A stretch of DNA of 64,000 nt from Candidatus Gottesmanbacteria bacterium (GTDB lineage Bacteria > Patescibacteriota > Microgenomatia > JAMCYU01). Shown here in pieces: positions 45,799 through 46,821 of this stretch; position 1 is the first letter of the stretch; every line of letters starts with the position of its first letter. The position numbers were made by a program, and so were the translations under genes. The DNA lies in the NCBI GenBank assembly GCA_043801155.1, contig JAZDMI010000011.1, forward strand, positions 27,439-91,438. The letters are read 5' to 3'. Under the pieces are notes generated by a model, which was not told the origin of the DNA, searched no databases, and saw nothing but the letters and a program-made list of their open reading frames with translations.

Positions 45799-45873
45799 TG
45801 GAGCGGGTGATGGGAATCGAACCCACTGTCTTCTCCTTGGGAAGGAGACATTTTACCGGTAAACTACACCCGC
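45799..45873 (-). tRNA. tRNA-Gly (anticodon CCC), CCA encoded
   Basis: Reverse complement gcgggtg-ta-gttt...tctcc-ttCCCaa-ggaga...gtggg-ttcgatt-cccat-cacccgc-t-cca. Confidence 0.8.
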
Positions 45874-45900
45874 ACTGTAAAATTTAACGATTTTACAGTG
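45873..45900. promoter_or_regulatory. 28-bp palindrome CACTGTAAAAT-ttaacg-ATTTTACAGTG abutting the tRNA-Gly 5' end
   Basis: Perfect 11-bp arms. A second copy lies at 46794-46821. Confidence 0.6.
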
Positions 45901-46027
45901 TAAACACTTCACCAGACTGCGTCTCAAAATAACTATATCTATTTTATCACAACAAAGAAATCTGAAGAATTTTCAGAGTTAAATATTTTTTAAAACGAGA
46001 AAACAAAAATGTTGAATCTACCGATAT

Positions 46028-46585
46028 TTATCTTGGCAATATTAGGACATTACCAGCATTAATTACATCAGGATTTTCCAGCTTATTAGCTTGAGCAATT
46101 TGCGACCACTTATAACCATCACCATAAGCCCTGACAGCAATATTCCAAAGATCGTCACCTTCAACAACAGTATAATTATCTTTGGTAATTGATGATGCAA
46201 CTAATTCATCTTCTACTAATCCTGTTTCTGGAAGAATTGGTTCAGCTTTGGGAATTGTCAATACCTGACCGACTTCTAAATAATCAGGACTTGAGAGATT
46301 ATTTTCTGTGGCAATGTCTACCCAATTAAATCCACTCTTAAAATATTTTTCCGATATTGTCCAAAGACTTTCTCCCTCGGTAACCGTATGGGTAGTCGGT
46401 AATGATTCGGTTGCAGATTGTTCTTGCTGCGTTTGATTTTCTCCAGTCGTTAGAGAACCAGGTTTACCACGACCGGTGAAAAAATTAAAAAGAAGAATTC
46501 CAATTACAATAACAACCAATAATCCCAAAGTCATGGAGATGTATGATTCTGAGAATTTCAAGTTTTTTAAAAACTTTTTCCACAT
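46028..46585 (-). CDS. LysM-domain peptidoglycan-binding protein (TM plus two LysM repeats)
   Basis: Two LysM motifs: TEGESLWTISEKY...GQVLTIP and VEGDDLWNIAVRAY...GNVLILP. Confidence 0.8.
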   Translation of the reverse strand: MWKKFLKNLKFSESYISMTLGLLVVIVIGILLFNFFTGRGKPGSLTTGENQTQQEQSATESLPTTHTVTEGESLWTISEKYFKSGFNWVDIATENNLSSPDYLEVGQVLTIPKAEPILPETGLVEDELVASSITKDNYTVVEGDDLWNIAVRAYGDGYKWSQIAQANKLENPDVINAGNVLILPR

Positions 46586-46686
46586 TTGTCCTCCTTTCTA
46601 AGCAGTAGTTAAGATATTATTGGGCAGAGGTTTCGTTATAAGATTTTAGTTAGCTCGCCTTCGTTAAAGCCTCAGCGAGGTATGAG

Positions 46687-46759
46687 CGGACCCGGCCGGA
46701 TTCGAACCGGTGATCTCTTCCTTGACAGGGAAGTGTGTTAACCGCTACACCACGGGTCC
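46687..46759 (-). tRNA. tRNA-Asp (anticodon GTC)
   Basis: Reverse complement (g)ggacccg-tg-gtgt...acac-a-cttcc-ctGTCaa-ggaag...accgg-ttcgaat-ccggc-cgggtcc-g, with discriminator G. Confidence 0.7.
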
Positions 46760-46793
46760 CATATGGGACGGAAACTAGCGTTTCCTTCCTTTA

Positions 46794-46821
46794 CACTGTA
46801 AAATTAATCGATTTTACAGTG
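46794..46821. promoter_or_regulatory. Second copy of the 28-bp palindrome (CACTGTAAAAT-taatcg-ATTTTACAGTG), 34 nt upstream of tRNA-Asp
   Basis: Arms identical to the copy at 45873-45900. Only the central hexamer differs. Confidence 0.6.

Follow-up and report, generated by a model that had tools for sequence, protein, structure and literature searches.

Hairpin modules at tRNA ends in Microgenomates and their association with a small GIY-YIG gene cassette

Introduction

In repetitive extragenic palindrome (REP) systems, which include REP doublets forming hairpins (REPINs) and REP-associated tyrosine transposases (RAYTs), a nuclease-type gene lies between inverted palindromes and solo copies are dispersed elsewhere (PMC3337134). 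Phage T4 carries segB, a free-standing GIY-YIG homing endonuclease gene, between tRNA-Arg and tRNA-Ile, with RNA hairpins regulating expression (PMC2988022). In Escherichia coli, tRNA-adjacent terminator hairpins are removed by RNase P or RNase E (valU, lysT, leuX and the proline tRNAs; PMC4176162, PMC2811032, PMC5291269), removal from the valU, lysT and leuX transcripts being endonucleolytic cleavage by RNase P (PMC4176162). For organelles, mitochondrial mRNAs are reported to be released by excision of flanking tRNAs (PMC5716156, PMC3790967) and mobile hairpin elements to accumulate in intergenic regions (PMC2800124). The present work concerns a 64,000 nt stretch of a Candidatus Gottesmanbacteria genome (contig JAZDMI010000011.1, positions 27,439–91,438; hereafter the window), in which two palindromes with identical arms lie beside tRNA genes. 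Both belong to a family of hairpin modules that sit at tRNA ends in Microgenomates and that, in related genomes, form the inverted ends of a cassette encoding a small GIY-YIG protein.

The modules resemble REP/REPIN–RAYT systems in their short conserved palindromes, variable loops, intergenic location, sporadic presence and absence, and in the inverted pair around a nuclease-type gene. However, the flanked gene encodes a UPF0213 GIY-YIG protein and not a Y1 HUH transposase, and no HUH gene was seen in the loci examined. Unlike REPs, a module starts with C(A/C)CT, the first two bases of which are tRNA nucleotides 72 and 73, and has no GTAG-type 5′ tetranucleotide; copy number is apparently low, the modules are tied to tRNA ends with nucleotide precision, and mobilisation is something that we infer here. 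As with homing cassettes, the GIY-YIG gene is nested between tRNAs, and among the relatives (only there) one such site is found empty, decayed and occupied. Unlike T4 SegB, the proteins of these members of the candidate phyla radiation (CPR) consist of a UPF0213/YhbQ catalytic domain of ~85 aa, are encoded in cellular genomes and are bounded by inverted hairpins flush with both tRNAs, for which a homing cassette has no need.

As with the E. coli hairpins, the stem loop lies within a few nucleotides of the tRNA 3′ end and one endonucleolytic cut would separate the two. Those hairpins combine a high G+C content with U tracts, come after an encoded CCA, act as terminators and do not form sequence families, whereas the modules start inside the acceptor stem (C72), follow CCA-less tRNAs, and also occur at 5′ ends and inside operons. 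The 11-6-11 geometry of the window copies is shared with Xer/dif sites, but the modules have variable centres, several copies per locus and linkage to tRNA rather than to the terminus, and likeness to the dif consensus is not apparent. With organellar punctuation and organellar hairpins there is analogy only, the modules being bacterial (CPR), built to a defined plan with a tail, and linked to a nuclease gene. In comparison with miniature inverted-repeat transposable elements, the module is itself the inverted repeat, usually has direct-repeat flanks of 3–5 nt, and has the GIY-YIG cassette as a candidate parent. Palindromic elements associated with selfish nucleases are of a known kind, and it is the precise tRNA-end specificity that is unusual; literature searches found no relevant published account of tRNA-flanking palindromes, or of GIY-YIG genes with tRNAs, in CPR.

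Results

The pattern CACTGTAAAAT-N6-ATTTTACAGTG occurs twice in the window (Table 1), with identical 11 nt arms and different 6 nt centres (ttaacg and taatcg). An earlier sequence-only reading had described the pair exactly and had judged it too long and too exact for chance, and this judgement is borne out: with up to three mismatches allowed, there are 2 matches in the 64 kb against 0.01 expected (100 dinucleotide shuffles), and beyond the two palindromes a single half-site, with one mismatch, was found. The window has a G+C content of ~36 %. Three nearby tRNAs, all on the minus strand, were called by ARAGORN and Rfam; the last G of palindrome 1 is nucleotide +1 of tRNA-Gly, and palindrome 2 lies 34 nt upstream of tRNA-Asp. 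On the minus strand the order is palindrome 2, tRNA-Asp, a LysM gene, palindrome 1 and tRNA-Gly. The two copies had been said to bracket all three of these genes; tRNA-Asp and the LysM gene are indeed enclosed, in a segment of 921 bp, but tRNA-Gly lies outside it. Rfam 15, at gathering and permissive thresholds, returned only tRNAs from the window and six related loci, leaving the hairpins uncovered by any family.

Seventeen related modules were collected from 11 loci including the window (loci are given below by L numbers), from genomes that are Gottesman-, Chisholm- and Roizmanbacteria-like, by label or by inference; taxon labels are as in the records. Fourteen of the 17 modules are flush with a tRNA boundary, nine as left modules and five as right modules. 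On the strand of the tRNA, a left module reads tRNA...C72-A73-C-T-(stem loop)-C-A-G-T-G-(T/-)AAAC-A-C. The right module is the reverse complement, G(T/G)GTTTA-C(A/C)CTG-(stem loop)-CAG(T/G), followed by the tRNA. All nine left modules start at C72-A73 of a tRNA that has A73 and no encoded CCA, overlapping the ARAGORN call by 3 nt. The five right modules end within +1 to +3 of the tRNA, at +1 of tRNA-Gly (window and L103) or in G1–G3 of tRNA-Lys (L025, L149) or tRNA-Asp (L101). In L043, L025, L073, L093 and L094 the arms lie directly 3′ of tRNA-Leu(gag), Glu, Val(gac), Phe and Arg(ccg), respectively, the first C and A of the palindrome being nucleotides 72 and 73. Two further copies are present in the L043 array, one after tRNA-Leu(cag) with two mismatches and one after tRNA-Phe with a 26 nt loop, giving three to four copies in 8 kb, three of them within 500 bp.

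When 198 kb of related loci were scanned blind for ACT...AGT palindromes, every strong copy fell at a tRNA end or on a tRNA fragment; with weak matches included, the overall number did not exceed that in shuffled sequence. Random scatter of the motif, which had been named as the observation that would speak against a tRNA-specific role, is therefore not what these loci contain. The comparison with relatives that had been suggested gave a divided result at the tRNA-Gly site: a copy is present in L103 (CACTAAAAAAT-ctaaacg-ATTTTTCAGTG, with one compensatory T:A to A:T change) and in L104, where it adjoins a 5′ fragment of tRNA-Gly, but in L101 it has degenerated to 8 of 11 pairs, and L145–L147 lack it. 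The L104 fragment (8885–8935, minus strand) is a diverged tRNA-Gly-like 5′ half with an anticodon-loop-like CATTACA; it abuts the palindrome and is truncated by a 203 aa ORF (8278–8889, plus strand) without a Pfam match. Downstream, at a distance of 700 bp, there is an intact tRNA-Gly(ccc), which has a TGTATAAT box of its own. The idea that tRNA-Gly had been inverted, with the module originally a 3′ trailer, was ruled out by the proper U73 and encoded CCA on the other side.

Each module is composed of an outer stem, C(A/C)CT...AG(T/G)G, part of which is made up of terminal nucleotides of the adjoining tRNA, a covarying inner stem, a loop, and a tail, TAAAC(A/C)C, that points away from the tRNA. 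At the Gly site of the window the module is a right one, GTGTTTA-CACTGTAAAAT...ACAGT, followed by the G that is +1 of the tRNA. All 17 modules fold as a hairpin beginning at or beside nucleotide 1. With 15 modules aligned, pairing is kept in 92.7 % of stem cells and 8 of the 11 pairs have changed on both sides; none of 500 shuffles reached this and no slid register came close. Positions 3–4 (C, T) and their partners (A, G) are invariant. Inner stems have been swapped wholesale and still pair (TGTAAAAT, AAAAAAGC, GTCCCGC, GGGC, GTAAATTTCG, GTAAAAGTTCGAA), and loops range from 3 to ~26 nt or more, with observed values of 3, 5, 6, 7, 9 and at least 26. The tail covaries with the arm (CAC...CAGTG...CAC versus CCC...CAGGG...CCC; pair 42–49 is UA in 11 sequences and GC in 3), which supports a 3 bp mini-hairpin between the distal end of the arm and the tail.

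Most modules are flanked by direct repeats of 3–5 nt, CAC(TG) or CCC(TG). The left repeat is tRNA sequence, and the same repeat pattern is explained by the mini-hairpin. In the window, the tail of module 1 and the end of the adjacent arm could form AGTG-TTTA-CACT, and this tail is nearly identical to that of the L043 copy after tRNA-Leu(gag), TAAACACTGACCAGA. The tail of palindrome 2 lacks CAC and the copy is not flush with a tRNA, so the orientation of the Asp copy is ambiguous. A loop–tail pseudoknot was seen in L043-a only and is regarded as coincidence.

At three independent loci (L025, L148, L149) the order is tRNA, left module, GIY-YIG gene, right module, tRNA, with the two modules inverted and the gene coding for 85–110 aa. 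In L025 the left module after tRNA-Glu is followed by 13 nt and an 88 aa GIY-YIG ORF, the stop codon of which lies within the right module that ends in G1–G3 of tRNA-Lys(ttt). L148 and L149–L152 were found by protein homology alone, hairpins being ignored; identity to the L025 protein is 88 % for L148 and 70 % for L149–L152, and the layout is that of L025. L148 has tRNA-Leu(taa), left module, GIY-YIG gene, right module, a tRNA-like fragment, a second GIY-YIG gene and tRNA-Lys, and L149 has tRNA-Arg(tcg), a left module with a GC-rich inner stem, GIY-YIG gene, right module and tRNA-Lys(ctt). In 42 of the 120 closest homologues the protein ends in GFTL or GLP before the stop. These termini are two frames of one DNA, GGGTTTACCCTG(T)AA / GGGGTTTACCCTGA, which is the right module, and its reading in two frames argues for conservation at the DNA level. 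Two over-long gene calls among the homologues read into tRNA-Lys. Over-extension is seen in the GIY-YIG gene calls P0260, P0270, P0304 and P0348, where the hairpin module and the neighbouring tRNA have been translated as an N- or C-terminal extension (...SSTGRASRS, for instance, comes from tRNA-Lys).

The cassette protein belongs to the UPF0213 family (PDB 1zg2, E = 1e-17; 1ywl, E = 5e-16) and carries Pfam GIY-YIG PF01541 in precomputed annotations. At 81–112 aa the proteins consist of the catalytic domain only, without a recognisable DNA-binding domain, and the best matches to homing-endonuclease models (NCBIfam, PHROG) are weak and far below threshold. Literature searches found no description of UPF0213/YhbQ function, and the depositors of 1zg2 and 1ywl list them as hypothetical. 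More small GIY-YIG genes follow tRNAs directly in L043 (Arg tcg), L103 (Gly ccc) and L108 (Val tac). A different hairpin pair, GAGTCAAACTC and then GCCAAGTC-nnn-CTTGGC, is found after tRNA-Gly(ccc) in L103 (9000–9074, minus strand), there ahead of a GIY-YIG gene, and after tRNA-Gly(gcc) in L093 (180–259, minus strand); it may represent a second family of tRNA-flush modules.

Gain and loss of the modules are evident between relatives. The junction of tRNA-Arg(tcg) and tRNA-Lys(ctt) is a 4 nt spacer in L106, holds the full 342 nt cassette in L149, and in L107 measures 137 nt, with a collapsed left module (CACTGTAAAAAGTGTGAACACTTT), a remnant of the GIY-YIG C-terminus (tblastn E = 0.001) and a relic right module. 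The Leu/Leu/Val trailers that carry modules in L043 have orthologues without modules in L106 and L107. In the window, palindrome 2 with its TAAA is a 32 nt insertion in an otherwise conserved leader, between the units GGAAGGATCGCTAG and GGAAGGAAACGCTAG, and the homologous leaders in L104 (tRNA-Asp) and L101 (tRNA-Gly) have no copy. The window Gly copy agrees at 36 of 37 non-loop positions with L043-a, a Chisholmbacteria copy at another tRNA and in opposite orientation, and is closer to it than to its own orthologues. One and the same A.C mismatch, and a doubled tail, are common to the right module of L103 and the left module of L148. Judging from the empty, decayed and occupied states of orthologous junctions, the modules most likely spread and decay with the GIY-YIG cassette, solo copies remaining behind or being copied. 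Apart from the modules, L106 (7119–7250, plus strand) repeats the last ~20 nt of tRNA-Leu(cag) plus trailer (cctctcacctgcacaagtaat) three times downstream, a pattern typical of repeated integrase att-site scars.

Exact-pattern scans returned 71 loci from the genome collection and 29 from the metagenome collection, mostly chance or unrelated hairpins. Five belong to the family, namely L043 (a Chisholmbacteria metagenome-assembled genome), L025 and the metagenome contigs L073, L093 and L094. The label of L025 is Gammaproteobacteria, but its G+C is 37 % and its proteins are most similar to those of Roizman/Levybacteria. The Chisholmbacteria representative genome has one perfect palindrome copy. 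Viral contigs scanned for the palindrome, for an arm with its tail and for the right-end motif gave nothing, or nothing adjoining a tRNA among the matches listed. The same 10 nt arms at a conserved intergenic site in the Streptococcus mitis/oralis group (~30 loci, such as L002) were judged chance convergence of A+T-rich hairpins, and those of Chryseobacterium (L005, L013, L019, L037, L046, L062), in an A-run/T-run terminator 25–27 nt after tRNA-Asp, were likewise judged chance. Twelve metagenome contigs (L072, L075, L077, L078, L080–L083, L089, L092, L095, L099) fall outside the module family, have no tRNAs nearby and are probably unrelated. They share an orthologous non-coding region in which four to five TTTGGCCATTT iterons lie beside a long palindrome with the core CACTGTAAAAT-gaaatttcc-ATTTTACAGTG, an arrangement that is replication-origin-like.

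Other features of the region

The palindromes lie in a co-oriented minus-strand chain (Table 1) in which a promoter-like site is followed by a 160 nt structured leader, tRNA-Asp, the LysM gene and tRNA-Gly, and then by a glycosyltransferase gene, an inositol monophosphatase gene, a 123 aa ORF and tRNA-Thr. From its sequence, the promoter-like site is likely the start of the tRNA-Asp, LysM and tRNA-Gly transcript; TTGACT-17-TATTAT is found in the same arrangement in L101, L103 and L104. The order tRNA-Asp, LysM, tRNA-Gly is kept in six relatives with a PolX identity of 63–68 % (L101, L103, L104, L145, L146, L147). In L147 the LysM stop codon and the tRNA-Gly start are 2 nt apart, and in L145 tRNA-Gly lies 10 nt after a terminator-like hairpin of LysM; this tight spacing argues that tRNA-Gly is co-transcribed with the mRNA.

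Table 1. Location of the palindromes and surrounding features in the window
Feature	Position	Strand	Remarks
Palindrome 1 (CACTGTAAAAT ttaacg ATTTTACAGTG)	45873..45900		Right-end-type module; predicted RNA hairpin, stem 11–12 bp
Tail of module 1: TAAACAC (45901–45907) then TTCACCAGA	45901..45916	+	Minus-strand reading TCTGGTGAAGTGTTTA just upstream of hairpin
tRNA-Gly(ccc)	45799..45873	-	U73, CCA encoded; 5′ end abuts module 1
Palindrome 2 (CACTGTAAAAT taatcg ATTTTACAGTG)	46794..46821		With the TAAA of the next row, solo module inside tRNA-Asp leader
TAAA after palindrome 2	46790..46793	-	Truncated tail without CAC
tRNA-Asp(gtc)	46686..46759	-	CCA not encoded
Proximal leader hairpin GGAAAC-GCTA-GTTTCC then GTCCCAT	46760..46789	-	Second conserved leader module
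Distal structured part of tRNA-Asp leader: TCGCAAAGGG...CCCTTGCGA hairpin + closing stem	46822..46905	-	Palindrome 2 directly 3′
Sigma-70-like promoter TTGACT-17-TAATAT, upstream TG	46929..46957	-	Faces divergent promoter-like site of PolX gene
LysM-domain membrane protein gene	46028..46585	-	Between the palindromes; does not belong to a mobile cassette
tRNA-Thr(cgt)	43219..43291	-	

The 146 nt tRNA-Asp leader folds at -54.9 kcal/mol (z = -6.7), and its distal part is conserved in L104 and L101. A second tRNA leader module is recognisable here, consisting of a TCGCAAAGGG...CCCTTTGCGA hairpin followed by GGGAAAAAACCG-YTAG-GTTTTGTCCCAT and ending 3–8 nt before +1. It is found in the window (46760–46905, minus strand), L104 (9763–9880), L101 (8998–9100, and again in the tRNA-Thr leader) and L145 (3718–3790), is common to Asp, Gly and Thr leaders across different genomes, and has no Rfam match. 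Further upstream, a 27 nt imperfect palindrome (46915–46966) spans the divergent promoter-like sites TTGACT-17-TAATAT, towards tRNA-Asp, and TTGATA-17-TATTAT, towards PolX. Between LysM and palindrome 1 (45921–45976, minus strand) there is a terminator-like hairpin, CTGAA-aattc-TTCAG, followed by ATTTCTTT; the same interval contains an extended -10 element, TGATAAAAT (45949–45941), and a weak dyad, TAAAAT...ATTTTG, and aligns with the degenerate palindrome of L101.

Upstream of tRNA-Thr, the 23 nt tandem duplication noted from the sequence alone is confirmed at 43299–43346 (2.1 copies, 100 % identity). On the minus strand its unit contains AGTG-CTTG-CACTG, and its segment GCACTGAGCG matches the complement of 8 nt in the D arm of tRNA-Thr (GCTCAGTG); read from the plus strand, it resembles an inverted tRNA D-arm fragment. 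The segment between tRNA-Thr and tRNA-Gly(ccc) (window 43292–45798; L101 6983–8922; L103 4892–9074; L104 6750–8143) differs in gene content from one relative to the next, with inositol monophosphatase and GT2 glycosyltransferase genes in the window, DUF8370, HhH-GPD, GIY-YIG or unknown ORFs elsewhere, and nothing in L147. It behaves as a tRNA-flanked variable island.

Discussion

The reading that we favour, with moderate confidence, is that the window palindromes are solo copies of a Microgenomates tRNA-flush hairpin module, relics or satellites of the GIY-YIG cassette, and that at the level of the transcript the hairpins serve as caps that leave processing at RNase P/Z junctions unaffected. 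The mature ends of a tRNA are defined on the RNA and not on the DNA, so the fixed register of the modules argues for a role at the transcript level. An RNA-processing hairpin on the precursor had been among the candidates of the sequence-only reading and, as a putative function, is the one most compatible with a register fixed on mature tRNA ends and with stem covariation. RNase Z processes CCA-less precursors, and flush terminal stem loops protect RNA against 5′ and 3′ exonucleases.

A module hairpin would coincide exactly with a processing site, that of RNase Z where a CCA-less tRNA lies upstream and that of RNase P where a tRNA lies downstream. Cleavage by RNase Z after A73 would leave a downstream RNA beginning at the paired C74, cleavage by RNase P before +1 would leave an upstream RNA ending in a paired nucleotide, and excision of the tRNA would thus yield a non-tRNA product with a flush terminal stem loop. 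The tail, or its mini-hairpin, would stop the distal arm from pairing with C72-A73 or G1–G3 and keep the acceptor stem intact. The predicted excised mRNA of L149 has flush stem loops at both ends, with a GGG-UUUA-CCC mini-hairpin beside the 3′ one, and that of L025 has one at the 5′ end. In the window, once RNase P had cut, the LysM mRNA would carry the Gly copy as its 3′-terminal cap. The copy near tRNA-Asp would be a recent 32 nt insertion in a leader that is discarded by RNase P, and probably has little function. Spread at the DNA level with the cassette, by homing or by a REPIN/RAYT-like route, would be compatible with such an RNA role; it is suggested by the sequence conservation of CACT, CAGTG and TAAACAC by the inversion of left and right modules including the TAAA/TTTA spacer, by the closeness of the window Gly copy to L043-a and by the variant common to L103 and L148.

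Several observations weigh against this account of the modules. The sample is small (17 modules from ~11 loci) and was found in part via this very sequence, a dependence that does not extend to the cassettes of L148 and L149, to the C-termini of the 120 proteins or to the relatives with conserved synteny. The 64 kb window contains no GIY-YIG gene or remnant. L043-a and L043-b lie between two tRNAs, where there is no mRNA to protect. In mismatched copies, G-U pairing on the transcribed strand is not consistently favoured, such a preference being seen in L103 but not in L043-b or L104. Finally, the outer stem and tail are conserved in sequence far beyond what a cap or insulator needs, and together with the inverted module copies this points to recognition at the DNA level.

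An alternative is a purely DNA-level selfish element resembling REPINs and RAYTs, which we regard as possible, if tentative. The modules would be non-autonomous palindromic elements, recognised and cut by the UPF0213 nuclease as hairpins in single-stranded DNA or as cruciforms. Acting in trans, the nuclease would move solo copies, such as the two in the window, to tRNA boundaries, and consequences for RNA would arise only as a by-product. Inverted modules flank the nuclease gene much as REPs surround RAYT genes (PMC3337134), and Microgenomates lineages with different labels have CACT, CAGTG and TAAACAC in common while their loops are unrelated. The nearness of the window Gly copy to a Chisholmbacteria copy rather than to its orthologues, the mismatch and doubled tail shared by L103 and L148, the insertion in the tRNA-Asp leader and the direct repeats beside most modules all point the same way. 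However, two copies in 64 kb is a low number and no nuclease gene accompanies them in the window, the UPF0213 proteins have no demonstrated activity and, at ~85 aa, no DNA-binding domain, and nothing comparable was found in the viral contig collection among the matches listed. Nor is there an obvious way for a DNA enzyme to read the mature ends of many tRNAs to the nucleotide.

The remaining explanations treat the palindromes as conventional DNA signals. It is quite improbable that they are promoter elements, in which the TGTAAAAT arm would serve as a -10 box 16 nt before +1 of tRNA-Gly in a bidirectional or insulated promoter, even though tRNAs in these genomes typically have TAAAAT or TATAAT 11–17 nt upstream of +1 and tRNA-Val(gac) in L107 has exactly TGTAAAAT 14 nt before the gene. 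The LysM gene of L103 has a canonical terminator that precedes the palindrome by 15 nt, such that tRNA-Gly there needs read-through or a new start, but tRNA-Gly in L145 and L147 has no room for a promoter of its own. A consensus scan found no promoter at either palindrome and no -35 box is present; the inner stem, TAAAAT included, becomes GC-rich in homologous modules (L149, L101), the L073 palindrome lies between convergent genes, and the second arm and fixed register are left unexplained. Readings of TTTACA or TAAAAT in the arms as -35 or -10 elements were inconsistent between copies and were rejected. An intrinsic terminator was also rejected: there is no U tract, the stem is A+T-rich inside, TAAACAC or a tRNA follows, the palindromes are absent from the terminator scan, and copies occur between co-oriented tRNAs. 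The L073 copy, between convergent genes, is the only one that fits a terminator context.

A recombination site flanking a tRNA–LysM cassette, as had been proposed, is wrong as stated, although a cassette with this module as its inverted ends, that of the GIY-YIG nuclease, does occur in other Microgenomates. Four of the six relatives with conserved gene order lack an intact Gly palindrome (three absent, one degenerate). In its Xer/dif or integrase-core form, with inversion or excision of the tRNA-Asp–LysM segment, the proposal draws on the 11-6-11 layout of the copies that bracket the 921 bp and on the hypervariability of the tRNA-Thr/tRNA-Gly region among relatives. It is very unlikely, in that the central 6-mers differ, homologues with the same arms have centres of 3–9 nt or longer, there are two copies in 1 kb here and three in 500 bp of L043, the neighbouring genes include no recombinase, relatives keep the bracketed gene order without having the sites, and the cumulative GC skew does not switch at the palindromes. 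Hardly credible, finally, is the dimeric transcription-factor operator for tRNA promoters put forward in the sequence-only reading. The arms have perfect dyad symmetry over 11 bp, and the half-site ACTGTA presumably resembles LexA- or LacI-type half-sites. However, the distance between half-sites varies from 3 to 9 nt and is at least 26 in the long-loop copies, and the co-occurring helix-turn-helix regulator that had been suggested as a check was not found among the genes near the palindromes. Most copies are placed within transcripts or between tRNAs and not at promoters; positions downstream of promoter-like sites (~110–160 nt for tRNA-Asp) and between convergent genes are seen as well, and the arms overlap tRNA coding sequence by 1–3 nt in a fixed register.

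A more far-reaching proposal, which is speculative and in our estimation unlikely, is that the modules and UPF0213 together constitute an unrecognised GIY-YIG-driven mobile system, REPIN/RAYT-like, that inserts hairpins and its own gene at tRNA boundaries. Its ends would mimic and spare RNase P/Z sites and so keep insertion into essential tRNA operons harmless. Such a system, if real, would provide the first function for the widespread UPF0213/YhbQ family.

For annotation, if the interpretation holds, CACT..hairpin..CAGTG-TAAACAC would offer a marker of tRNA flanks, one that would explain the frequent over-extended GIY-YIG calls running through hairpins and tRNAs in Microgenomates metagenome-assembled genomes. 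On the same condition, the modules would supply a candidate substrate and role for UPF0213/YhbQ GIY-YIG proteins, and a compact element of small-genome CPR bacteria would have colonised tRNA operons without breaking them, its hairpins placed to the nucleotide. They would also point to a rule for the release and stabilisation of mRNAs nested in bacterial tRNA operons, a bacterial form of tRNA punctuation.

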